Origin: Catajapyx aquilonaris
Taxonomy: Eukaryota
Reading direction: 5' to 3'
DNA: 64,000 nucleotides
Assembly (NCBI GenBank): GCA_000934665.2
Contig: JYFJ02001517.1
Span: 1-64,000 of the forward strand
Of the stretch, positions 14,579 to 60,700 are shown one piece after another (the first letter of the stretch is position 1; each line of letters opens with the position of its first letter). The position numbers were made by a program, and so were the translations under genes. The notes beneath the pieces were generated by a model. It searched no databases and had not been told where the DNA came from. It saw only the letters and a list, made by a program, of their open reading frames with translations.

Positions 14579-15505
14579 CTGGAGAAAAATGAACAGATTA
14601 GTAACATAGGAATATGACATCTCCTAAATATGCCATCACAGTAAACTTGATAATTCAAGCTCTGTGCACTAAGTTTTATGGACACACACACACAGAAAAA
14701 CATGTTCCTCACAGTTACCCTAAAGTGGTTCAACATTCAATTTCAATGGCAATTGAGAGTTAACACCAGTTCTTTGACATGCACAATGATCATGAAAGTT
14801 AACTAAATCTGACGATTATGCACTACTGGTTATACAACACGAAGATTTTTTCAAATGGAGCATTACAATGAACATTACATTTCCATGCAAGCCTCAATCT
14901 CATGACTTCAGTTTGAAGTCCCTCATTACCATTACCATGTGCATATACAGTGAAACCAACCAAGAGCAAAAACTTAGCTAATGATCAACAAATTTTTTGG
15001 TCCCAACAGGAAAATTAGTTTCCCATGTAGTTTTGTACAGTACAATATAGCTGAACCTGCATATTGTGGAAATTGACAGAATTTGTATGTCTCTTCATAA
15101 AGAAAACCCTGCACCTATAAGAATTTATGCTGCATTAAAGGCAATTTCAAAACTCCTGCCATGTGAGGGGGACATGGTGATCACATGGTGCTGAAAATAT
15201 TTGCAGAATGGAGTGAACCTACGAGTGATCCTCGTTCTATGTGCAGCCATGTGGAAATTGGGGGCATAAATGTTTCCTAACTATCCGGCATAATTTGTTT
15301 AAGAAATTCTAGTGGTACCTATTATCATAATCTTTTGAAGTAAATCTGTTGTGTCAACCAAATGTAATCAAATTTCTTACAGGACTAATTGGATTTACAG
15401 TGGATAACAATCTTCAACTACACTTAAATTTGTTCTACACCAAAATAAGAACTTTCAAAAATCAGTCCTTGCGTTTTAATCGCTCACCTGTATCAGCAAC
15501 AAGCA

Positions 15506-18500
15506 TCAAGCAAAATACATGACCTTCTTGGTGTCAGCATGGACTGTAATTGCCCTGGCCATGGCTCCAGGGGTCCTGTCCTCACTGCAGCCAGACTGGT
15601 GGGATCCTTCTCCACTACAGTTTGAAAGTAAAAAAGAATAGTGAGGGAAATGTTGGTGATCAATTTCAAGGGTATCAAAAATTATGGTTTGTGAAAAAAA
15701 TGGACAAATTATAAAAACTGTGGGGTACAGGGTTACGTTAGCATGCCAAACAACACGAGCCTGCAATTATGGTCAGTTTTTAAGGCTAATAAACCTAAGC
15801 ACAAGCAGGTGGTCCCCAGTCACACACACAAGTCACGCTCACAGAATGGTGATTATGTATCAGAAAGGTATGTCAAAAAATAACAATAAACAATAATAAT
15901 GCTGTAATCGTTCAGTGGCGGCATAAACAATATTACAACTACATAAGCTTGACTCTGCAGCAGCAATGATTGCAATGAGGATGCAAAGATGGGAAAGACT
16001 GTCAAATGGCAATGAGAGGGATACTACACAACAACAAACCCACAAGCCAACAAAAAACAAAACAAAAAACAGACAAGGGGCAAGTGATAGAATTAAAATA
16101 AACCAGTGAAACTAAGTTCATTAACGAGTGGAACAGAAACGAAACAAAATGTGTGATAAGTGATAATTAAAAAGGAGTGGAATGTATAAACTGGAGAAAA
16201 CAGGGACAATTCCTTCCCATCACTTGGTCAAGAGATGAGGCACACACACAAAAAATATAAATAAATAAACAAGGAAATAATAGAGAGGGTGTGTCAAAGT
16301 ACCCATTCTGACTCCTCATTGCTGGAGTCAAGCTCATGTATTCCCCACTGGTGCTTGTGTGGGAACCATACCCCTTGAAGCCCATTCCTGGAAGTTCGGC
16401 CATATCTCTGGAAGAGGGCAGAGAGGGACACAACATTCTTCTCTCATACCACTTAAAAAACCCTTTCACCTAAACTGGGGACATTCACCTCTCTCACCAC
16501 ACATTCTCTCACTAGAATGCCAATTTTACAAATGAAATTTCATTTTGCCTTGCCCCCTTACCCCCCAACTCCTCTGTGATCACACATTTTGGGAGACTTC
16601 TTTCTCTTTCAATAAGATGCTAAACATAAACAGGATCTGGAAACAAGTTTCTAACCTGTCGTGCTCTTTCTCAACCAGGTGGTACCTGGCCCTGAAGGCG
16701 ACCAAGTGGGCATAGTATGCTGGGGCTGGTATGGAGACGGATCGTGTACAACGAACGTAAGTGTGACACAGTTGGTATGTCAAACATTGCAGTTCGTCCG
16801 AATCAAAGTGGTTGTCATCCCAAAGAACGTGATAATGGCTGGGACGACTTGTGCCCTGTGAGAAAGACAACAAATAAACATTGTAATAAAGTAGCATAGC
16901 ATCTCATGGGAAACTATTGCCACTGAAAAACAATCCCCCTTGCCAAAAATTCACAGCCATTGCATTGCAAAGAGCATTTAATGTTTTGTTTCAGGTTTTC
17001 TAGCCAAGTTTTGTCAAGAAAATAGGGTTCAGGAACAATAAAACCTTCAAGACTTCAGCTTTATGACATGATAAAAGCATGTTACCTGTATTCCTTGGTG
17101 ACTGCAGAGGTAGAAGTCAAATTCTGTTGGGTGTGTGATGCCAACATCCACCGTGGTCCCTGCTGGTATGTTGCCTGACTTCCCTGACTGCTCTTTTTTG
17201 TCTGCACAAAACAACCTGCAATTATTCAGATCAGAAATATATTAATATCTCATCAGTATCACACATTCACACATCTGCAATTTGGCACTAACAAGCCATC
17301 AATTAACTGAACTGGAAAAATGCATGATATGGCCAAGCTTTGCTTATAATTTAGCCAAATAATCAATAACCAGCTTAATCATACTGTGTAGCCACATGGG
17401 AGCTCCCAGTCTGCAAATCTCTCCCATCTGATACTAAATCATGAGTATGTGGTAAGTCTTGTGTATGTATAAGTCAAGTCTGGTTTGGATTTGCTACGGA
17501 CTTATCTGAAAATATTTTGTGCTGCCATGTTCCGTCAAGAATAAGCAGACCAATATTGATGTTGCTTCCTCATTGTGTCCAGACATTGGTTATCACTAAT
17601 AATTATTATTATATGCTATGATATGCAGCAGAGGGCCAGAGGGTCAAGATCAAAAGCAAATTCTAGATTAACAAAGGTCATTAAGAATCCTATAATATTT
17701 TGCTGCACTTTTTGGGGAATGTCCATTTGCTTCCCCAGTTATCAGTATGAACAATGCTGCATATTGTGCTTGCACTAGATATGTGCACAAAGAAACATGA
17801 TTAATTATAATTCCATTATGAAGGAGGAACAATACCTAGTGTGATGTCTTTTCTGCACTACTATGAAGGTAATCCCAGGCCTATAGTCAGCCTCCAACTT
17901 TATGCAGGCCTCGCGAATGGCAGTGAGCTCATGCTGCAGAACATGTAAGAACTGCCCTTCAGATACACCATCTCGGTAGAGAATGATCCGATGGGGCTTG
18001 TATCCGCCAGTGCTCTTGTAGAACATGATCAGCAGCTCCCGAACCATAGAGCTCAGCTCTTGAATGATCTCCTGGCGGTGCTGCTGTACTCGTACTGTGG
18101 CTGCATACCTCGATGGATGCGCATCCATGGATCCTACCACTGCTGCTATTGATGGCTTTTTGTTATCACCTGCAGGTGGATGGGTCACATCCGCCCCAAG
18201 GAAGATCACTGGCTCGTTGAACACCTGTAAAATAGTTGTGACAGTACCTCTGAAGATAATTTTTCAGGATATCATGCAAACTTTCAAGCATTACATATAG
18301 CATAGAAATAGTGCCTGCAGGGAATCCTCTAGTAATTATGTTAGGAAAAGAGACTAACAAGTAACTCTGACAATACTACTTTTGGCAGTACTGGTACTGG
18401 ATGGATTTTTTGGGAAATTTTCGTTTATTATACCATGCCCTCAGAAATCGATTGCAAAGAATTTTCTCCTTACCTTTGGCCTAATGCTGGGAACCAAAAT

Positions 18501-21500
18501 GCTGTTAATACCACCAAGCTTAACATTGATTTTGAGGCAGAGGTTGGACAGGGTCTGCGGAGAGGTCTTGTTGACATTCTTTGCCTGAACACACTGGGTG
18601 GCCATCCCAAGGACTGTGTCCCCAACACGTTTTACCTCAGCTGAAATCCCAAGTCAACAAGTTAGAAGAGCCTCTGAATGTAATGAAATAAAATCCTTCA
18701 ACTCTACAATGCACTAACTGCACAACAATATACAACACTGCTAATATTAATTAATACCATAATCACTAAGTGTATAGGGTGGATGATTAGTGGCATGATT
18801 CTTCAAGCCTCTCTAGCATGATTACAACAAGGAAAAAGTGTCAATAGATGGGTGAATCAGAATATGCAACTAGAGTCTGGCCTCACAAAACGCTGGTCAT
18901 CTCAAAAAATGAAACAGTGAAGATTCACTTTACAATTGTGGATTACTTGGCTCTGTCAACAGATGACTTTGACACCAACCCACACAAGGACCCAAAAAGT
19001 AACATATGGCCATTGTGATACAGTGAGGAAGGAAAAAATAGCGAAAGTTTGGAAATGGCCTAAAATGAGTATGTTAGAAGAATTTTCACGTTTCGTGGAA
19101 GTGGTCAAAGTCCAGTAACCATAATATAATTATGTCAAATGAAAGAGAAAGCCAAGGGGAGAATGTGCCTAAGGCATTAGTTTTCCTTAAAAATGCAACG
19201 AGAATAATGGGGGTGGAAATCCATCGGTCACATGCCCATGAATTTGGGCCCCCAAAAATTAGTGGGCAAATCTACGAATATTATCTTGCGAAGTTGCGGG
19301 CCATGCATGAACCAGACTTAAAACTGGACATATTAAACCTGGTGTGGGTCACAACTCCTGTCACCAAAATAATATGGCTGCTCTGACCCAAATATATCAC
19401 TAATCGTTGGGGTCAAAATATTGGGACATGCGATTGAGCATGTGGCCAATGGAATGCCACGCAGATTTTTCTGGTTACATTTGAGAGGAAAACAAATTAT
19501 TCCACAGGCGCATTCTCCTCGTCTTTCTCTTTCATTTGATGCAGATGTTGATTGGGTTATGACAATTTCCCCTAACCTAAAAAATACATATATATAAAAA
19601 GGCCTGATTTTCAGCCCCTCCCAAAATTTCGCGATTTATTTTCTCCCACTGTATTGCGCAATATGGGTGAAACTTGACACTTAGGGTTACATCATAGGTG
19701 TGTGCATCTGTGATTTCTTTCGGCAAAATTCGATATGATCTAGCAACATCGATTAGGAAAGACTGGCTATATTTCGAGGACTATGGTTTTCTGACTACCC
19801 CAAGCTAAAAAAAACAAACACATTCAGACGAAATGAATGGTGATTATGAGTTACGAGTGCCCTAAGGAACATGGAGATGCCATGAATACCCATGGACAAA
19901 AAGTTGACTTTTGTTACATAGTGTAAAGATCATTTAAAGAAAATTCTATTTTCACCGTCCGAAGATAGCTCATTGACTTTAACAGAAAGTGCTCACTGGC
20001 ACCCCCTTCAAGTGGCGCCCATGGCACGTGCCATACTTGCCATACCCTAGTTACGCCTTTGTGTAGGTTGCAGCCTATTGCCCACCAACGCTAAACCAGC
20101 TGCTAAGTTGCTAGCCCCTTGGATAAATTTACTAATTTTTCTGCAGACCAAATTGTGTCACACAGTAATGAGCTAGTCGATTTAGTTTGAATAAATCCCC
20201 AAATGTCAGCTATAACCCTACGTTACTCAAACAATGTTCCTACTGTCATCTCTTGGCTGAAGTATGATGATATCGAAACCCTTCTTTGGCAGGGTTGTTA
20301 GATTTTATTTTTGTTTTTGTTTTTCAAGGAGCATGCCTACGAAAACATCAGGATATACAAATAGTAACTATTTTGAAAGTTCTGCTTCTTCCAGTTTAAC
20401 ACAGCTGGTAGCATTCCTAGTAAATTAGATGATTTACAAACACAATAAAGCTAATGACAATAACTGTGGAAGTACGAGGAGCCGCCTCCTGAATCAGTAC
20501 AGAAATTGCGAAGCCAGCAAACATGACATACCATAAACTGGAGTTTTCCCTGGTAGCACAACCACTACCAGTTGCAGTCCCTGGAAAGTGGACTTGAGGT
20601 ATCGGAACATTGGCTCCACTTGATCTGGTCCTGTTGCATATTTACCTATGTGCGAAGAGGGGACAATCAAAATCTTGTTAGTTGACAGATAATGAGCTGC
20701 TCTTAAAGTAACTGGCTAATGCTTACAAAAACATGGCTGTCCAATTATGGGCATCCCAGCATCATTGCTGATCTTCTGTAACTGCTGGGTAAAATTTCTG
20801 AGGGCATCCTCTCTCACTGTCCGCTGTGGAGCAAAGCAGGCAATTGCCCACACACGGATTTCTACGCCGGTAAAAAACTGCTTCCCACGCATATCCCAAA
20901 CACCTTGATTTGGCAAAGCTTGCTGTTTGGTCTGAAAAAAAAATGGAGACGTGCTAGTTGGTTGGTGAACTATTTCTAATAAGAAAGAGCTTCAGAGATA
21001 TACATGTATCAGTAGGTATAGTAATGCCATAACCTTCCCAAATGAAACCCAATGTAATAACCAATCAAATGCAACATACCCTTCCCCCATACTGCAGCTT
21101 GGGAGGTGGCAACACCCTTCCTCTGACTTCCATCATGTTGTTGCTGATAGCCAATCCAAACTCCTGAACATATGGATCATTGTTGAAGTCAGCCTTGCGC
21201 ACAAGGCTGTTGATCTCGCGCTCCCTGTCTGGTGCTGACCGAGCAGTGGCCTTGATCATTGTGGAAGTCTGCATGTCAGTCAGCTTCTTGATGCAGCGCT
21301 GGCCTGCCACAATATTGCACACCTCAAGTGGCAAGTAGGTGTGCTTGTGCTCCTGTCCCACTTGAAGGCAGGGCAAGTGTGGGAAGCGCAGCTTCATCTT
21401 ATACTTATCTAGGAAGTACTTGGCCACTGTGCATTCCACTGTCTGGCCATTCTCCAGTTGAAGTGGAAACGACTGCATCTGGGCAGGTCGACGGGTCACA

Positions 21501-24500
21501 TTACATACCCTGTACTTGCGCCGCATGGTGCCACAATGTGTTATCTCGATCTTAAGGCCTTTGATCTCCTTTGTGAACTTGACCCGCTGTGAGTCAGTAA
21601 GGGGCTTCCGCTGCTCATTGATGTCACGAATATCCAGCACCTCACACATGAACTCAATCACAGGTTGCGACTTGTAAAATGCAGTGGCAGATACTGTAAG
21701 ACAAGGGAAAATTATGTCAAATTAAATGCGCTACTACGGCTTATATATCACACTTCATTGGGTCAAACTCATTCTATAGGCATATTGTACCGAAATGTGT
21801 AACATTTCGAAGCGTGCATTTTATTAACAATTAAAGATCTGAATTGTGGAATGATCAGATTCCCATTTGGCTCATTTCGAAACAAATATTTGAAGTTAGA
21901 AGATTCCATTATCATTTACTGGATTTTTCCCCTCAAAATATTTTCCATAAGTGGCTGTAATTTAGGTCCGTTAACTTGGAGTGCAAGGGCGAGCTAGAAC
22001 AATGAAACAACTGCAGAAATTTTGCACCCATTTTGCAACATTATGTACCACCAAGAACGAGTTTTGCACCCCTATAGTTTGTGAGTTATTAAGGAAACAA
22101 ATTTGCACTCCAAGTTGTCCAAATGTGACACATAGAGAAAAAGTTATTCAAGAAAATAGGGAGACGGAGTGGCGCTGCGGTAACGTGCGCACCCACGGAT
22201 GTTAAGGTCCCAGGTTCGATCCCAGCCCGGGGACACCCCCTTCATCTCGTGCAGAGTTCAAGGTCACCTCTGGCTTCGTCTCAGGTAGTATTTCCTACAG
22301 ACTAAACCACCCGGGGGCGCTCACTAAAAATGGCCACACGTAAGATGCACTGCACTTGCACATCCCCTCCTGTCATCCTGCCCGTGGGCCCGGGCGCTTC
22401 AATAATAGGATTCCCAGAATTGTACACCATCACAATAAAGGTCTGGCAAAAAACCCCTGTGGAGTTAGCCGAATACCCAATCAATTATTTGTTATTATTA
22501 TTATTATTATTATTCAAGAAAATGTCCAGAAAATTCCGGCGAGTGCTGACCGAGAGCAACAATTCCAGTGACCTCTCACACCGAACAGGTTGAACATATT
22601 GACCTGTAATGTGGCCCAATAACACATATATATGAAACCTACAATTATGCCAAATTTCATCAAAATCGGATGAGGTAAGGTTTCATGAGTGATCGCCTTG
22701 ACATGGATTTACCCCTATATGTACACCTACCATCAATGTTTAGCATCATCTTCCATTGAGAGGGCCTCACTGATTGATGAAAGCCAAACCACACCTCCCT
22801 CCCACCTCCTAATGGATGGTAATATCCATCTGGTGAAGAGAAGAAGCTGCGGCCCACTGGTGTGTACGTCATGGATGGAAGATGACGCATTACCACATCC
22901 AAAGCTTGTATAGCATCAAATGGGATGATCCTAGCTCTCCCCTCAAGTGCCTCCTCCAGTGCAAAAAGTGAAACACGAGCCACCCATTTGATGGCAACTC
23001 TGAACACACGGTCCTTCCCTTCACCTGGTAGGGTCACCTATATACAATCAAATAAATCATTAATAATCAACTAGAAAATATAATTATTGGTCTAATGGTA
23101 TGCATAATTTTGGACAGGATATCTTCACTTAAAAACTGAGTGTACAAGAGTACAACAACACGCTGACTGTTATGCCTAGTTATTAGCATTCGAGCATAAT
23201 GTCATGGCTGTATGTAACTGACAGAAAACATACCTCCAGTTCCATCCTATCGTTTCCAATGGGAATGGGGTCCCGTGTGTACAGGTTGCTCCTCCCATCA
23301 AACACTGGCTTCACATTACTGAAGATCTTGCTGTAAGCATGCACCATGGTTTCGATGATCTCCCTGTAAGACAACAGATAGTGATGTTTATAAGCGTGAA
23401 GGGTTAAGGCCTGTGCAGACTTGAGACACTGGCTACACGCCATTCCTGTACCGCAAGAGGCAACCAATCAGAACCCAGTCTGCTCCACTCTGTGCCGTGC
23501 CACTCAATTTAGAACGAATTAAATTTTTTTGCTTTGCTGAGATGTTCCGCTGGCAAAGGGGCCAATGAAGAGCCTAGAGGTCACGAAGAGGTGGGGCCGA
23601 GTGGGGTTCTGGGCCACTGTGCCTCCTCTGGCAACTGCAGTATTGAAGTATGCATTCACTCAGGGAAGTCGGGAGATTGACAACATGTGGTCAGGTATAG
23701 GGGAAGAAGACATGCCAAACAGATGCTGGGGGGTGTTGGGTTGAAGGTTGGGGGGACTGGGGTTGGAGAAAGGGTGTTGGGAATGAGGGGTGGGGGCTTC
23801 CCACCTTGGCAATGAAACGAAGGGTGTATGAAATTAAATAGAGCGTAGCCAGCGCCTCTAGTCTGCACAGGCCTTTACCCAGTAGGTGTGGCTATCTTTT
23901 AATGGAGCCTTGTTAACAGGGGAAGAGGGGGAGAGGTATGGGATGGCGGGGTTGGGGTGGGTTGGGGGGGAATGGGAGGAGGAAGGGCTGACCCCAGCCA
24001 TACTGCAATGCCGGGGTTAACCCAGGCATGGGGTGGTGTGGGGTATTGCCCCTAGCACCCTGTCCGGCCATGAAATGTGAGTTAGGTCCAAAGACCACTC
24101 AAGTATCGAGCAACAGTCGCTGGATGACCAGACGGGACTTGAAAGTTATTTTTTTTAAATTTGCTCTGAATTCCTTTCACTTAACTCTCTTGCAATGAAA
24201 TGACCCTTAGAATGGATTGTAAGAAGAGATTTTCTATTTAAAAGGACAGAGATACACACTCAATGTCACCTTCAAATTCGGATATGTTGGGAAATATGAT
24301 TGTATCAAATTTACCCCTTTTTGTACCTTATTAATATAGGAGAGCCTAAATATTATACACACCGTAACTTTATTCTTAGATGAGTGAGGCATAACGGTAT
24401 AATTAATTATGCTTCCTTATAACTCCTCTGGGGTCTGTCTGATACCTGTCCACAGACACACACTCACATAGCCATTTTAGACTTTTTTCTCTCGAAAAAG

Positions 24501-27500
24501 TAAAACAGACTGCAGAAATCAGTCTGCTACAACCAAGGTCAGTTACAGCCAAATACACAGGCCATATATGGAAGCACGGCAGGAACAGCCTTGCAAGTAT
24601 GGCGTATTGCTTTCCTGTTGCCCGCCTTGCTCTTCCCGGCGGGGAAGAGCAAGGCGGGCAACAGGAAAGCAATACGCCATACAAGTCTGCTCTAACCAAG
24701 AATCTGTTATAGTCCAGGCTGCGACATCTGGAATTAACTGTGTACGCATTTGGATGTGTTCAATGCTTACTAACAACTAAGTAGCAAAGCTCAGTCCAAT
24801 TGACATTAGAAATGACATTTCAAGGCTGACGAACATGTCTACCACCATACCAAGAATACCTCCTATCACCAAAATTATACCCAGTTTTAAAAGCTACTCA
24901 AAGTACCTGTTCACTTTTCGGGGGCACTTGTCTGGCTGTATACTGATGTCGTAATGGTGCAAGTACCCCCTTGGCATGGTGATCTGGAAGTGGTTCGCCC
25001 GCAGCATGATGGGCCGGCCATCGTGGCCGAGATTTGGTCGGCGCGGGCATGTGAACGCTGCAGGTGTGGGAAACAGGGAATGCATCATGTGACGAAGCAT
25101 TTTTAGAATGTGGTCCAGGCACAGCCAGGCCAGAAAACTAACTTGGAATGTCCAGCTGCTGCGGCGGGATGGCCGGTGGTTGGGGCTGCATGGTGCCCAT
25201 CTGTCCCGGAGGCGCGGCCACCGCCCCCGGGGCCCCAACAGGGGCCTGAGCTCCCGGAGGTCCCGTGGCTGCAAGTTGGAAAGGCCTCAGCTCAGACATC
25301 ATGTTCGACAGGGTGGCAAATGTACATCTCACTTCACTGTCACTGACCAACAACCCATTCACTACACATTGCAAGTCCTCCCTATTACAAGACTTTCCAC
25401 CATATTCATTCAGGTGACTGAACATCACTCTCTATCTCTGTCTTGTCTCTGTTAGATATACTTCATCATTCTCACAAGTTTACAATGGCTTGGCATTGCT
25501 CACACTAAGCCACAGCTTTCCTGCAGGGTCCTATGTGTAAACTGGAAAGTCAGGAAACCAATAGCACTGGCAGCAGGCATAACTTTACTCTTGTGTCTAT
25601 CCATTGCGAGACAAAAATGGCACAAATTAAGCCAAGGCTGTGCCCATGTCTGACAGAGCAAATGTCACATTTTAATTACCGAAGCTATGATCACTTTAAT
25701 TACAAACTACAATTTTGAGCAGGATATACTTATAAAGCAGCTTATAAGCAGCTTATACTATGAGCAGGAGTACTTATAAAATCTGTGGGCACCTCATGGG
25801 CCAGCAAAATTCTTACTTCCAAGTCAGACAATATTTTAGAATCTCCTGAAGCAGGAAATCCAGTCTATAGTCTATAGCTGCTGTAAGGCAGGATAGTCCA
25901 TCATGGCGTAGCAAGCAATTAGTATGGTGGCATCATGACAGTGACAAATAAAAGCCTCATGTCCCACTGGAGCTACTATCATGGCCCAGAGCATCAAGAT
26001 GTTCATCATGATGGGTTCCAATGACTCCACTGGAATTCACTGGTCACAGAGAAACCAGTTATTTTCTTAGACAGCAACAACTCCGTATTTTGCAAATTTT
26101 TTTTTCATTTCTGCCACACGATGTGAGTTACCCATCCCACTGGCATCATACTGTATAGTCATTTCATGCTACATCACACATGATGATCTTTACTATGCAT
26201 AGCACTGTTTGGTATACCATAACATCTCAAAGTGCAATAATACCCATGTCGCACATCATGTTGCGCACTTCAGGCACTGTGGACTTGAAGCAAACAGTAG
26301 CTCTGCTCATGTGCAATCCAAATGAAAACAAAATTGACGCAGTTCCTAGGCCTATCCTTATTGCCACCAACTAAGACACAAGATTCGGGGCACAAATCAT
26401 ACCTGCTGCCGAGCACTAACATTCCAACATTCCAAATTACCCTCCAGGGTACTTTTCAACCCAACTTTTTCCCTTAGAGCTAGTTCAAAACACCCAAAGG
26501 TCCCCTAAAAGATGAGGCTTCAGCATGTCTCCCCCTCCACCCACTTCCCTCTCCAGACTAGAGCTTCACAACATTATCTCCCATCCACCTAGTTTGCCAG
26601 CTGCAGCTGTGCTTTCCTGGTATCAGCATTCAAAGATAAGGGACCCTTGATCAATGCAGAAGTCAGGCAACCCAGCAAACCCTTTCATTTCCCACTGGCT
26701 ATTTTTTACCTGCAGCAAAACAACTTGCACTTGTGAGGCAATATGTATGGAATCTATGACAGTTTTTCACATGAGTAGGATTTTCTTCACACAAACACTT
26801 GATTCTTAAATTTTGTGTTCAACTGTAATTCACCTAATCAGAAGTTTAATTGACTTTGGTTATTATCAGGACTTGCAATTTACACACCTTATCACAACTA
26901 CAAACTTGTACATTGTACAGGTACCAAAATAATCCCTTTCAATTTTGTGTCTACAATTTGGTTATACCAGTCCCAATTCAAATCTACTTCCAATCACATT
27001 GGCAATTTTGAGCATCGCATATCAAGAGAAGATTGTAAACTGTTTCATTCCACACTGCAAGTTAATAAACGAGCTAATGGAAAAGTGTTTATGAATACAG
27101 AGAATCATGATAATGATCAAGAAGCTAAGCACTAAAACTTACCTAACATGAAACTCTACCAAAATACCATGGCAAATTGACTAATATGAGACCAGAGCCT
27201 ATGCACAATCACACCGATGCAGACATGTACCCACTCACTCAACGTCACAATCAAACTCACACACGTCATGGTACAGGAAAAGAACCACAACTGCATGTAA
27301 AAAAAAAAAGTACTCCGGAACCATAATCAAAATCTACTACCTGTGCATCCCAAAGCAAGTCCATCACTCACTCAGGCCAGGCCACCCGAGCTCATTCTCT
27401 TTTCATTTTGCTTACAACTTTAGTTCAGCCCACCCCCATTCCCAAATAAAAGGTCAGACACAGAGCATGCAAAAGAAAGGAATAAAATGCCAATCGTATC

Positions 27501-30500: not shown

Positions 30501-30954
30501 TTAAAAATTCCTCTCTTGATTACAATTGCTCATATGTGAACAGCTCAAAGTACACAGCTGAACAGCATTTGAACCACTTGTACCAAATATTGGACCCAAG
30601 CCGCAACAATTAAGACAGCATGAAGTAACTCCCTAGCTCGATGCACAGTGGCAGCACAGCGTAACTTTGGAATACACCATACGGACGTGTGCTGCAACCA
30701 GCGACTGGCTACTTGTCGAGTCGTAGGCAACTTTCCCAACTCCAGGTACAAAACAAGGTGTGACAAAAAAAGCTGCGCCCAATCAAACGAGAAACGAAAC
30801 AGATGAGTGACTGAATGAAGGAGGTCAAGGGAGAATATAGTCAAAAGAGTTAATGATAACAATAATAATAACGAGAGTAAAGTTAATGATAATAACAAAA
30901 AGGTGAAACCGTGAAGTGCCCCTGTGTCTACTTACGCTGACCAACGGGATACAT
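15506..30954 (-). CDS. AGO1: Argonaute-1 (miRNA-class AGO; N, PAZ, MID, PIWI), 886 aa
   Basis: Exons 30936-30954 (MYPVGQ), 25143-25268, 24907-25057, 23234-23363, 22731-23037, 21080-21693, 20727-20931, 20532-20645, 18474-18640, 17836-18224, 17086-17215, 16656-16855 and 15506-15614. All are GT-AG, phases join, total 2661 nt. Motifs: [63 protein letters not shown]-terminal MYFA*. Catalytic D-E-D-H residues are all present. Confidence 0.97.
16303..16407 (-). CDS. Candidate Ago1 cassette exon (105 nt, phase 2-2, +35 aa)
   Basis: Acceptor tccctctctgccctcttccag|, donor GG|gtactttg (same gtactttg as the constitutive exon-3 donor). It is stop-free in the Ago1 frame. Confidence 0.55.
19000..19670. mobile_element. 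Old foldback/MITE with long diverged inverted arms in an Ago1 intron
   Basis: tcaaatgaaagagaaagccaaggggagaatgtgcct (about 19135) pairs with aggcgcattctcctcgtctttctctttcatttga (about 19506-19539). Weaker complementarity extends to about 19000 and 19670. Ends are approximate. Confidence 0.7.
20000..20060. mobile_element. Isolated terminal fragment of a non-autonomous DNA transposon
   Basis: gtggcgcccatggcacgtgccatacttgccataccctagttacgcc resembles the GGCGTAACTAGGG-type termini common on animal MITEs. No partner end was seen. Confidence 0.35.
22158..22509 (+). mobile_element. tRNA-derived SINE with (TTA)n tail and 14-bp target-site duplication
   Basis: Pol III A box TGGCGCTGCGG at 22170-22180, B box GGTTCGATCCC at 22213-22223, (TTA)n tail at about 22492-22513, and TSD TTATTCAAGAAAAT at 22144-22157 and 22510-22523. 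Confidence 0.85.
23727..24045 (+). repeat. G-run-rich low-complexity tracts (G-quadruplex-capable on + strand)
   Basis: Two clusters of GGG+ runs (about 23727-23796 and 23918-24043) in Ago1 intron 3. They are C-rich in the Ago1 pre-mRNA. Confidence 0.55.
24597..24682. repeat. Perfect 41-bp inverted repeat with 4-nt loop
   Basis: gtatggcgtattgctttcctgttgcccgccttgctcttccc-ggcg-gggaagagcaaggcgggcaacaggaaagcaatacgccatac. Confidence 0.95.
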
Positions 30955-31448
30955 GATTTTTTGTGGCTCAACCTAGGGCCCGGGCTCTATAAACGGACAG
31001 CAAGAGAAATAAATAAATAAATAAAATGCTGAGTAGAGAGAGAGATAGGGATTGGGGATGGCAGTTGGCAGGGAGTGAGTGTGTGAGTGTATGGGGCGGA
31101 GGTGCAGCACAAGTGGGGCGGGTTCGAGTGGAGGGCGGGTTGGGGGCAGATGGTGGGTGGGGGTGCGTCTCTCCTCCCCTCCTGAGGGAAGGGGGAAGAA
31201 GGGTGGAAGGGACGGATGCGAAGAGAGAGAACTGGCCTAGTAGTAGGTCCAGCTTTGGGAACCCCAAAAGGGTCTCTCCCCGGGCTGGCTCTGGTGTCTC
31301 TGGGCGGGCTTCCTCCTCTCCTCCTCCGGCGGCGGAGAGGCGTCCGTCGATCGGTGGCGGTCGAGGGACGGGGCGAGCGGGCGGGCAGGCGGGCGGGCGG
31401 GCGGATCACGGACGCACACTCCCTCCTCTCCTCCTCCTCCTTCCTCCC

Positions 31449-31590
31449 TCAGACTCTCAACATGGCGCCTCTCGGACACTCGAGAGGAGGGGGGAGGGAG
31501 GGAGGGAGGGGGTGACGTCACGAGGGCAGGGCGGGAAAGAGGGGGAGGGGAGGGGATGAGCAGGCCTGGAAATAAGGCGGATCTGACGTG
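31449..31590 (-). promoter_or_regulatory. Ago1 promoter/TSS region (GC/CpG-rich; CRE palindrome; YY1-like motif overlapping a uATG)
   Basis: TGACGTCA at 31513-31520, a half-CRE TGACGT at about 31584, and GGCGCCATGTT on the minus strand at about 31459-31469. A GC-rich island spans about 31050-31600 upstream of the Ago1 ATG. Confidence 0.55.
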
Positions 31591-33248
31591 GGTCATCGGG
31601 AAATTCGTATGATGCGCGAGGGGGCTCAATCATACCATTTATGTAGCTATCAGAAGGCCATTAATAAATTGCGGAGTGTCTGTTTAGGAGTCAGATTTCG
31701 ACAAGAAGCAACGGGCACTTTGCTTATATTTTAGTGCAGGTGACCCTTTTTGCTCAGACGATCCATATTTCAGTTGGTAATGGGTGTAGTGGATATAGCA
31801 GGGGAAGGCCAATTTCCTCTTGCTCTGTTAGTACTGTATTACATCATTTCAGTGGGCACAGTAATTCCTACGAATCTGCGCAGACATTTTCATAATACAT
31901 TATTGGACCGCTTATTCGTCACTGCATAGGAGTGTTTAATACTAAACAAAACTGAAAGTTTAATTAATCTACCCACATAAGAACAACTCCCTACAGAACA
32001 AAATGTACGCTAGGCTACTTGAAACCCTTGCTATTTCAATACATTACTGTAGTAATTATTTTTTGTAAGAATGTCAGAAAAAAATGATGGGGTTCTAATA
32101 CTTCTAAATGAGAAATGAGAGGCCCATGCACGATTTTACTAATTTCTTTCGGAAGAAACGGCAAAATGGTATAAAAATGTAATGTTCGTATACAACGTGA
32201 TGCAAACAAGAAAGGACTTCGATTTTCTTTTTGATGGCCTTGGGCCGTGGGCGATCGCCAAAGTGCGTACACAAGTAACTGAAGTGCGTATGCAAGTATA
32301 ATTGAAAATAGGGCGGCAAGAGCTCATCCTTACTCCAGCCCTGCACGTGGTTGTTGCATAGTTCATGTTTATAACATATTAATTCCTTTCTTGTCATTCT
32401 AGCAACAGGTTCTACCATTCAGCGCAGGTCATATATGCACAACGTACGTGGATCAAAATTGACTATTATATGATTGTCATGTTCTTGAATATAATTTTAT
32501 GCCATTGAAAGGGAGCACGCGCTACTGCATTGGCGGTAAAATAACTCGAAACATTACCGCGCAATTTGCGTAGAAGTCTATACTGTACACAAATGCGCAG
32601 AAATTGTCTAATTGCGCTCATCAGCCGTAATGTCAATACTGTGTAGTAAACACGTAAACGCTATCGGCTATCCCTGGTTACGCATGAAAAGCCACCAGTT
32701 TCAACATTCGCGCGGAAGACGGCGCAAGACTATGGAAAAATAGACCATGACGTATCTCCTTATGACTCATCGTAAAATTCACTCTGGTTGCTCGCAAAAA
32801 AACAGGAAGAGCATAAACCTTATTTCCCACCCTGTCCCTGTCCCCTCCCCCCGCCTCTCCCCATCCCCCCCTCCCTTCATGCAATGAGCAATGTTGCCAG
32901 GAGCACGGAACATTTCCGGACAAGGTCAATACTCCAAAAACGTGTACCGGATGAACTCCCCCGCGGACTGGCCGACCTCAACCAGCCGCAACCGCAGGCC
33001 CCAAAAATGGCCCTGTCCAACTTATGCCCAACAGCGAAAAAAAAAGAGAGAGAAAAAAAATTCATTGGCATCCCTACAAGGGAACCCGGAAGCGAAACAA
33101 ACCCGCGTTTCCCTGACCCAGACAAAGGGGGCGTGGACCACGGGCGGCCCACCTCCCATTTTCTTTTATAAACCGAATTAAAATGATTAATGAATCGGTG
33201 TCAACGGGAGTGATCAGGCGACGGAATGGACGGGATTGGCCTGCAGAC

Positions 33249-36063: not shown

Positions 36064-44483
<8,420 letters not shown>

Positions 44484-57753: not shown

Positions 57754-60700
57754 TTAATTTCCATCACATGGGGGTGAAAGGTCGGCCTTGGTGAACACCT
57801 TCGTTAAGGTATCGGGTGCGCAAGTTTGTTGGCTGACATTCCAGGGGTTCCACGGTGCGGAGGCGGCAGTAGGGAACCTTTCCCACGAGTTCTTTATCAG
57901 ATCTGCAGCCTTCTCTGCAATCATGAGGGTAGTGGCGTGCGTGTTGGCATTCACGAGAACGGGCATGACTGAAGCATCTACCACTCTCAAGCCCTTCAGA
58001 TTGTGTACTCTGAAATAATTACGAACAAATCAATTTCATGTGGGAAAAGTGTCACCTCTCACCCTATACAACAATAGCAAGGTTGTGCAAGAATACCTGA
58101 GTTGCGAGTCAACAACGGATGTCGGGTCGTTTTTTGACCCCATTTTGCAGGTACCAATAGGATGGTAAGTGGTGAAGGTGAAGTGACGGGCCAGGCATTT
58201 CCAGTAGTCGTCGCTGTATAATCTGTGCTGCTTGCATCCTTCTATTGGGTTGTCTGGCATTCGGGCCCCAAAGTCTCGGAACGGTTTGGTGCTGATTATT
58301 TTCTCGCACATGCGAATAGCTAGTGGAAAATGTATGGTTAATATACTGGCGTCTTTCACCTTGCAATATGTGCATACCTTCCAGCATAATTTGTAAATCT
58401 CGCGGATCTGAATAGTAAGCAGGATTGATGACGACAGAGTCTTCCGGATTAGTACTGGCCAGTTTTATCGACCCTTTGCTAAACGGTCTGGCCACAATAG
58501 GAAGAAACACCAACGTCCTGTTATCACTAAATTGTGTGAAATAATTGTGCCATATTTCATCCTGCAAGCCTCCGTAGGATCGTATGACCATTTCGTATTC
58601 CTCCGACATTGATATTCCCAGCATAATGATGTGTATGTCGGGCCATTCTCCGTAGGTGGTATTGGCCAAAGAGGAGTGCAGAAAGGCCATTCCTTTGGCC
58701 ATGGTCACCGTGGTGTAAACTCCTGTCCCTTTGCTGAAGAACTGCCACAAGTCACCAATGGACACGTCACTACTCGGAGCTACACTCACAGATTCGTTGA
58801 GTATCACAGGACCCATGTTCGTGGTTACATGATCTTGCAAGTTTTCTCCAACAGGCAAGTCTGCAACGACTGGGACCTGAAAAGCAGATATTTAAATGAA
58901 GTGATAATACATCGCATACAACATGTAACACGCCCAGAACGATGTGTAACGGTGTCGTATTATGGCGTTTTAAGTGCCGAGGAAAGTGAATTCACTGGCC
59001 ATTCTCAGGCACTCGTAACAGTGGACGCATGGAAAAAGTGATGTAATTATTGTTGCTTTCTTGTTTCATTATGTTAAAACATTCAACAGTGTGCCCTCCC
59101 CCACAATCTAGTATCAGAGTGCATGGGAAAAGCAACACCTTAGAGGTGTTTTATAATATCATGCACTATGTCATTAGTTGGGTGTAGTAACAAATATTCT
59201 CTGCAACGTGAGAATGTGGGCTGCTGCATCTTACACCGAAAATGGCATCCAACTTGCACGGGGCTGCTGTTAATATAATTGAAATAAAGAATTATATAAA
59301 TTATGCTAAGTTATAGGCAATTAGACCTATTTACCTTCGCATAAAACGGGCAAAATGTGAAGGAAAATTCCGTTGTCGTAATAACTTGCAAACAAAACAA
59401 GTTATTACGACAAAAGTGGTCTTACTTTTAAATAACGGGGAATCAATGTCCATTGCCAATATCGCAATCGTGCAGCAGAGACCTTATGAATATACTGCAT
59501 TTTTTATTGGTATGAAATAATGATGTATGACTACCCAACCCAGCCATCAGTTTCTATTAACTTACTTCAACACTTCCAATTCCATCATAAGCAACAAAAA
59601 CGCCCATTGCCTTTAGACTACATAGATTTTCACATAAACCTTTAAAATGATGTATCCTTTCCAAAGGGTTCAGCTCTGATGTAAAGGAACAACTTAAGTT
59701 AAGTGATAACTTAATTTACTAACATTTAATGATTTGAGGTGATCAGCTGGTCCAATCCCCGAGAGCATAAGCAACTGTGCCGTCCCAAGGGTGCCGCTTG
59801 ATACGATAACCTCCTTTGAGGCCTTCAGCCGCAGAGTTTGGCCATACCTCTTCACCACAACTCCATAAGCAGTCATATCCGCCTCGTTAATAAGCAACTG
59901 CCAAAGAGTGGGAAACGTTTGGTGTGAATAAAACATGATGAAAATAGGTGTCAGCCACAGAAAGTGAAAACGACTTACTTTCTGTGCCCTAGCATTAGGC
60001 ATGACGTAGAGGTTGGGCCTGTGCAACACCGGTCTCAAGATGCACTTGTAGGCACCACATCGGACACCCCGTTTCAGATTCATCTGAACACGCGTAAACC
60101 CTGCGGTGCACACAATGATACAAGCAGGTCCACCCATTAGACACGCCAGCATCTCACGCACCAACTTGATGAGAGAAAGTCTCACCTTCTTGAGTTGGTC
60201 CATTGTAATCATCAAGTACAGGAAAGCCCAGTTGCCTCCCAGCATCTAGGAAGTCACTTGAGAGCCTACTCAAAAAATTGGAGTCCACTACTGTCACCGA
60301 GCCATTGGATGAGTGGTACATGTCTCCAGCTGGTGATTGGCAATATTTAGAGCTCTACAGGCCCACATGGCATGACCAAAGACTCCACTTCCCACATGCA
60401 TTTCTAGGTTAAACGCCCCTTGGCAATCAATTACCCCATTGCTTCCTCTCCACTTGAAAGTCTTCAAACTTTTTGAAATATGGCAAGACATCAGCGTAGC
60501 TCCATCCTTCGTTCCCAAGCCTGGCCCAATTGTTGAAGTCCTCCGGGTGTCCCCGGACGTAGAACATGTAATTGATCTCGCTGGATCCTCCCAGGAGCTT
60601 TCCCCTGGGCCACAATGACCTCTGTACAGGACAAATAAATTACTTCAAATGATCGTCCTAAGGGAAGATTTCACATGCCTGGTTTCGAAGTCCGAAACAT

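Follow-up and report, generated by a model that had tools for sequence, protein, structure and literature searches.

Here, we describe a segment of 105 nucleotides (nt) at 16303..16407 on the minus strand of a 64,000-nt stretch of the Catajapyx aquilonaris genome (contig JYFJ02001517.1 of assembly GCA_000934665.2, positions 1 to 64,000; hereafter the window), within the last coding intron of a gene for the microRNA (miRNA)-class Argonaute Ago1. We consider it probable that this segment is a real, lineage-specific alternative cassette exon of arthropod Ago1, which would add 35 residues in frame to a loop of the protein, the eukaryotic insertion (EI), whose human counterpart is the seat of a phosphorylation cluster. 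The reading draws on the splice sites and frame of the segment, on its position in the aligned loop, and on a spliced contig from a related organism in which the end of the segment is joined to the last coding exon.

Anatomy of the cassette and its place in the EI loop

The gene that harbors the segment is assigned to arthropod Ago1, in the Ago clade and the miRNA class, by a PIWI domain that ends in MYFA and by full-length similarity that includes the PAZ domain. Open pieces with Argonaute sequence extend on the minus strand of the window from about 25300 down to 15506, and a model of 12 constitutive coding exons built from their coordinates (coding region 15506..25302, minus strand) is canonical, with AG/GT, at all boundaries. 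Its product has 891 residues without the cassette and 926 with it, each form ending in one terminal stop, and the 891-residue form, aligned along almost all of its length, shares 90–93% identity with insect, Daphnia, and tick Ago1. Homologues were collected with the 204-residue Ago1 exon as query (977 proteins at E<=1e-60 from 1851 candidates), and the best 120 were used. Nearly all of these are named argonaute-1 or argonaute-2 by their sources, the precomputed Argonaute N, L1, PAZ, L2, MID, and Piwi families are present among them, and the best full-length identity to the model is 93%, to a leafhopper protein, with no close relative in this set; shrimp Ago1 sequences are not among the proteins obtained.

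The cassette is flanked by two constitutive coding exons on the minus strand. The penultimate exon (16656..16855) matches the Pfam Piwi family at model positions 242–301 of 302 (E 3.1e-25) and ends in EKEHD and then AG, the first two letters of a split codon. The last exon (15506..15614) encodes the native phospho-cluster (GEGSHQSG…), the C-terminus MYFA, and the stop codon; it aligns with the last 34–35 residues of the human AGO1-4 chains and resembles the insect and Daphnia form of the C-terminus, not the tick or myriapod forms. From this and the 93% ceiling on identity, the protein sequence by itself places the gene no more narrowly than in an arthropod of pancrustacean type. The intron between them runs from 16655 to 15615 (1041 nt). 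Within it, the cassette acceptor (16408..16428) consists of a 19-nt pyrimidine-rich run with ttccag|AG at its end, the exon beginning at 16407, and the cassette ends at 16303 with the letters GG ahead of the donor gtactttgac (16293..16302), the first nine letters of which are those of the second coding exon's donor at 24907. The required frame is free of stops through the whole 105 nt, which comprise 34 codons and two split codons. When the cassette is skipped, AG at the end of the upstream exon (ending at 16656) is completed by the T that opens the last exon at 15614 to AGT, a Ser, and the canonical loop of EHD, Ser, and GEGSH is retained; when it is included, the codon becomes AGA, an Arg, and at the 3' end of the cassette GG and the same T form a Gly codon. 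The phase is thus 2-2, and both the frame and the essential C-terminus are preserved on inclusion. The initial annotation had proposed a cassette with a strong acceptor, a donor like that of the exon it numbered 3, a length divisible by three, and phase 2-2, and every detail that was checked is found in the sequence.

How readily would such a segment arise by chance in these introns? We built splice matrices from the 11 donors and 11 acceptors of this gene, which are few sites and give rough scores, and obtained 8.5 for the cassette acceptor and 5.9 for the cassette donor, both within the leave-one-out ranges of the constitutive sites (acceptors −1.1 to 11.8, donors 0 to 9.1). All stop-free, frame-preserving AG..GT segments of 30–300 nt were then scanned in 7,121 nt of Ago1 introns (n = 254), and none of the other 253 matches the cassette on both scores; the only comparable segment shares the cassette's acceptor and ends at a GT internal to it. 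This donor-like GT (16371..16372, minus strand; score 7.8) would define with the acceptor at 16407 an in-frame micro-exon of 36 nt, coding for 12 residues. The G+C content of the cassette is 0.51, a value within the range of the exons (0.47–0.69) and above those of the surrounding intron (0.42 and 0.36), and it is attained by 0 of 728 further 105-nt windows taken from this intron. Site scores and G+C content are supporting evidence for an exon, not proof of one. An origin of the intron or the cassette from a transposon was also considered and rejected, as a blastn comparison of the 1041-nt intron with the window returned only the self match and, within the window, no second copy.

The position of the cassette in the protein follows from alignment to the 859-residue human AGO2 chain of solved structures. 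The 65 full codons of the upstream exon align to residues 758–822 and residues 2–35 of the last exon to residues 826–859; the split codon is therefore the equivalent of S824, which becomes Arg on inclusion. The cassette lies between the equivalents of D823 and residue 825, which puts it four residues ahead of the S828 equivalent and inside the EI cluster. Both the placement of the insert in the Ago1 phospho-cluster loop and the loss of the S824 equivalent, as originally proposed, are borne out by this alignment.

A phosphorylation cycle of this loop is described for human AGO2 (PMC9154749, where its discovery is credited to Golden et al. 2017 and Quevillon Huberdeau et al. 2017). The native loop of the gene described here aligns residue for residue with the human cluster S824–S834, and the cassette sits within the equivalent loop and repeats its S-H-x-S core. 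Passages of a study of the human protein (PMC9154749) place the EI at residues of approximately 820–837 and describe S824, S828, T830, S831, and S834 as phosphorylated by CK1-alpha and dephosphorylated by PP6/ANKRD52. According to the same passages, S828 is the only site that is phosphorylated without priming, and this only after target binding, whereupon it primes S831; the added charge favors release of the target and frees the miRNA-induced silencing complex (miRISC) for reuse (PMC9154749). A difference from the arthropod gene is that no alternative exon is described for the vertebrate loop in those portions of the literature that our survey covered.

Transcript evidence from related organisms

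Sequencing runs were located by exact 31-letter words taken from 16263–16447 (17 sampled words), and two of them, here X1 and X2, were then placed on 15300–18700. Run X1, a metatranscriptome labelled as invertebrate metagenome, contains 0.53 of the 17 sampled words and run X2 contains 0.18, while none of the sampled words is present in two further runs, X3 and X4.

The most informative contig comes from X2. It is 415 nt long, follows the window through 15492–15614 and continues at 16303–16357 (55 letters, the shorter side), with 688 letters skipped. The ends of the skipped stretch read CT..AC on the plus strand, hence GT..AG in the direction of the gene, and they coincide exactly with the predicted junction between the cassette donor and the last exon. 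The cassette donor is therefore used, in an organism related to that of the window. In the last exon 12 of 123 letters differ from the window, the nine listed differences being spaced by multiples of three, and the contig's 237 letters past 15492 do not match the window and belong to a different 3' untranslated region; X2 thus derives from an organism other than the one sequenced here. In the cassette, 0 of 55 letters differ. Taken at face value, 0/55 against 12/123 would suggest that the cassette is more constrained than the adjoining constitutive exon, but the figure is biased, because X2 was found through exact words that it has in common with the cassette, and we attach no probability to the comparison.

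Run X1 yielded a contig of 776 nt that covers 16286–16410, 16200–16224, and 15727–16041, that is, the cassette and the downstream intron, unspliced. The cassette is therefore present in this RNA library, and its splicing is not demonstrated by X1. The contig stops at 16410, three letters past the acceptor, with seven further letters left unplaced. Compared with the window, the relative in X1 shows small intron insertions and deletions and a replacement of 26 letters between 16224 and 16286, and only 5 of 125 letters differ in 16286–16410.

The initial annotation had pointed to two junctions that inclusion should produce. One of them, 16303>15614, is that of the single X2 contig. The other, 16656>16407, is found in neither X1 nor X2, where the upstream exon is uncovered; the junction of the skipped form, 16656>15614, is likewise absent from both runs at an exon that had no cover. 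Use of the acceptor at 16407, which would complete the exon, is presumed.

Insertions at the same site in other Argonautes

Are other arthropod Ago1 proteins modified at this position? We compared the tails, from YHLV to the end, of the 98 homologues with a complete C-terminus among the best 120 of 977, for which the canonical tail has 45 residues. The canonical form, which corresponds to skipping of the cassette, is found in 74 of the 98 proteins. One protein (P0095) has two extra residues, which are within the cluster itself. The remaining 23 arthropod-type homologues carry 6–41 extra residues, all between EHD and GEGSH: 6 residues in three proteins (a millipede, an unnamed look-alike, and a planthopper isoform), 14 in ten (Daphnia and unnamed look-alikes), 15 in one (Priapulus), 19 in one (an unnamed mite-like protein from JGI), 22 in one (the oribatid mite Oppiella nova), and 41 in seven (sawfly isoforms). 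The three long insertion types start with Arg in place of Ser, as does the cassette, and this points to one and the same intron, with its phase-2 split codon. On this comparison of sequences, the last coding intron may be read as a recurrent place for lineage-specific coding insertions, to which the window adds an unannotated one.

The sawfly proteins of Neodiprion and Diprion, which their sources name 'protein argonaute-2', are Ago1 isoforms that resemble the present case closely in arrangement. Their extra residues are exactly between EHD and GEGSH, Arg replaces Ser as the first residue, which indicates an identical split codon, and one species is listed with both kinds of form; for Neodiprion the sources list isoforms with it (named X1 and X3) and without it (X4). 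The insertion itself is different, with 41 residues instead of 35, 7–8 acidic and 7–8 basic residues, Ser or Thr at 6 of 42 positions, and no S-H-x-S, and it has no similarity to the cassette (score reached by 1735–1838 of 3000 shuffles); these sawfly isoforms are computed annotations. The insertion of the oribatid mite and the related JGI protein agrees with the cassette in site, in its initial Arg, and in its richness in Ser and Thr (0.35), and its S-H-S…T-S-G-E stretch resembles the S-H-T-S-T-S-G-E of the cassette. It is shorter, however, at about 19–22 residues, and its likeness falls short of significance (score reached by 217 and 367 of 3000 shuffles). A related protein without the 19–22-residue insertion exists (P0095) and may or may not come from the same gene. 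Shared ancestry of the cassette with the insertions in Daphnia, millipede, planthopper, Priapulus, sawfly, or mite was considered in each case and rejected, none of the similarities being significant by shuffling. Separately, the 14-residue insertion of the Daphnia type starts by repeating the G-E-G-S of the native cluster, and a partial duplication of the cluster may have occurred there too.

Isoforms of this general kind have also been found in shrimp. The portions of the study of Marsupenaeus japonicus used here (PMC3510085) describe a single-copy Ago1 with three isoforms, Ago1A, Ago1B, and Ago1C, attributed to alternative splicing, of which Ago1A and Ago1B carry an insertion of 81 nt, or 27 residues, 'in the PIWI domain'; expression of the isoforms depends on tissue and on virus (PMC3510085). 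The initial annotation had mentioned penaeid Ago1 isoforms with PIWI-domain insertions. Like the two forms predicted here, Ago1A and Ago1B on the one hand and Ago1C on the other would be products of one Ago1 gene that are distinguished by an in-frame insertion within the PIWI domain; the difference is in length, 81 nt and 27 residues against 105 nt and 35 residues, and the site of the shrimp insertion is given in those portions only as the PIWI domain. Full-text literature searches turned up no paper that connects the EI cluster with alternative splicing, apart from this shrimp study, whose insertion is placed only within the PIWI domain. The description of the exon as hidden accordingly holds for this peptide and has to be given up for the site, since insertions at exactly this position are already annotated in other arthropods. 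The kind of exon is already visible in arthropod annotations and in the shrimp study; this cassette is new and the kind is not.

What does the insert itself encode? Counted with its initial Arg and its final Gly, the insert has 36 residues, among them eight Ser or Thr (0.22, compared with 0.11 in the whole protein) and two Tyr, and its three acidic and three basic residues leave it uncharged overall. It contains G-S-H-T-S, then T-S-G-E, and later T-P, and the two Ser of S-H-T-S have the n+3 spacing of the native S828/S831 pair. The last two-thirds of the insert can be aligned to the start of the last exon (its first approximately 20 residues; matching positions G.GSH.S...E..TP.AM), and the alignment score is reached by 60–165 of 5000 composition shuffles, depending on which of four gap settings is used. 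The nucleotide comparison gives no signal of duplication, 692 of 2000 shuffles reaching the score, and a duplication origin was rejected at that level. An old partial duplication of the EI cluster into the insert is possible and, from the protein alignment, weakly supported. The initial annotation had likened the insert to a second copy of the cluster: its own GSHTS motif is indeed present, and the wider likeness is weak in protein and lacking in nucleotides.

Searches for the peptide in sequence collections gave no match. A 40-residue read-through query found no protein in a collection of 5.8 billion clusters, at lengths of 71–2000 and of 22–70; phmmer with the 34 full codons of the cassette as query found 0 matches at E<=0.001 among 1.84 billion representatives, a weak test in that isoforms collapse to one representative; and among JGI metagenome contigs a 48-residue read-through query gave 598 pattern matches, of which 0 were confirmed.

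Alternative explanations and possible consequences

Several of these observations weigh against a working alternative exon. The sole junction evidence is one X2 contig, of depth 4.43 and from a library of unrecorded type; both runs come from relatives and none from the species of the window; and the 16656>16407 junction is in neither, the exons in 16554–18700 being without cover in both. The X1 contig shows the cassette continuous with the intron that follows it and could represent pre-mRNA or DNA in the library, and the complete identity of the cassette letters in X2 is in part an effect of ascertainment. The cassette peptide is absent from every protein and metagenome collection searched, no insertion of another lineage is significantly similar to it, the best being that of the mite, and the shuffles make its likeness to the native cluster weak. 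Finally, all statements on function are transferred from human AGO2.

One alternative is a cryptic or noise exon, included at a low level and without a function of its own, with the skipped form as the only working protein. It would account for a peptide that appears in no searched collection, for a junction seen in one low-depth contig only, and for the lack of sequence similarity to the insertions of other lineages. A noise exon would not be expected, though, to preserve the frame between splice sites of constitutive grade and with an exon-like G+C content, nor to keep its letters unchanged in X2 while about one in ten letters of the adjoining exon differ (the figure that is biased by how X2 was found), and the loop site evidently tolerates insertions, given the 23 of 98 homologues that have one. 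On balance we regard a noise exon as unlikely.

Improbable, in our judgment, is that the RNA signal stems from transcripts that were unspliced or spliced only in part, from DNA carried over into the libraries, or from read-through of the acceptor into the intron that would give a truncated transcript. The collinearity of the X1 contig with the cassette and the downstream intron is what such an origin would produce, and DNA can occur in RNA libraries of this type. The X2 contig, however, removes exactly 688 letters bounded by GT..AG, which is impossible from unspliced RNA or from the DNA of an intact gene, and a read-through product would stop after 51 intron-coded residues (open reading frame 16167–16469), without the conserved C-terminal exon. 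Least probable of all is that the 36-nt micro-exon from 16407 to the internal donor at 16372/16371, with 12 residues that lack S-H-T-S, is the form really used and the 105-nt exon a minor one: the internal donor scores 7.8 against 5.9 at 16303, the 36-nt segment is open and frame-preserving, and insertions of six residues occur at the same site in planthopper and millipede, but the one observed junction uses 16303, and X2 covers 16303–16357, downstream of the internal GT.

If the 105-nt cassette is included in Ago1 transcripts, what might follow for the protein? Ago1 would keep its native cluster, lose the Ser that is equivalent to S824, and have a loop longer by 35 residues. The included loop could be doubly phosphorylatable, through a second S-H-x-S ladder and the T-P site in the insert. 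The longer loop might alter the build-up of negative charge beside the bound target or, alternatively, the native S828-equivalent cluster might be presented differently to kinase and phosphatase once a target is bound. In both cases targets would be released, and miRISC recycled, at a changed rate. By analogy with human AGO2, such an effect on release and recycling is possible, and we put it forward tentatively. A wider proposal is more doubtful still: that the phase-2 intron splitting the S824-equivalent codon is a recurrent site at which EI-loop exons have been installed independently, that the exon installed here is a diverged copy of the cluster which yields an Ago1 with two clusters, and that regulated splicing, not the level of kinase or phosphatase, would set target release by miRISC according to tissue or state.

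Some further features of the window were noted. Intron 2 of Ago1 contains a perfect inverted repeat of 41 nt around a 4-nt spacer (24597–24682), for which a hairpin-forming element, a small palindromic transposon, and an artefact of assembly are all conceivable. A G+C-rich region at 30900–31650, open in several frames on both strands and about 5.7 kb ahead of the Ago1 start codon, is a possible promoter or 5' untranslated exon. Farther upstream and on the same strand as Ago1, pieces with Laminin G and EGF domains (36572–41732, minus strand) form a separate multi-exon gene, and open pieces at 58112–60245 on the minus strand match the N- and C-terminal domains of GMC oxidoreductases.

In conclusion, the cassette at 16303..16407 is probably a new, unannotated alternative exon at a recurrent insertion site of Ago1. 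With the native cluster kept, the S824 equivalent lost, and a second S-H-x-S ladder gained, it would be a convenient test case, and its place in a well-understood regulatory switch makes splicing control of miRISC recycling a directly testable question; our survey suggests that EI-loop insertions may be widespread in arthropods. If animals do edit the EI loop by splicing, this would provide a second, cell-type-programmable layer of control over miRNA activity.

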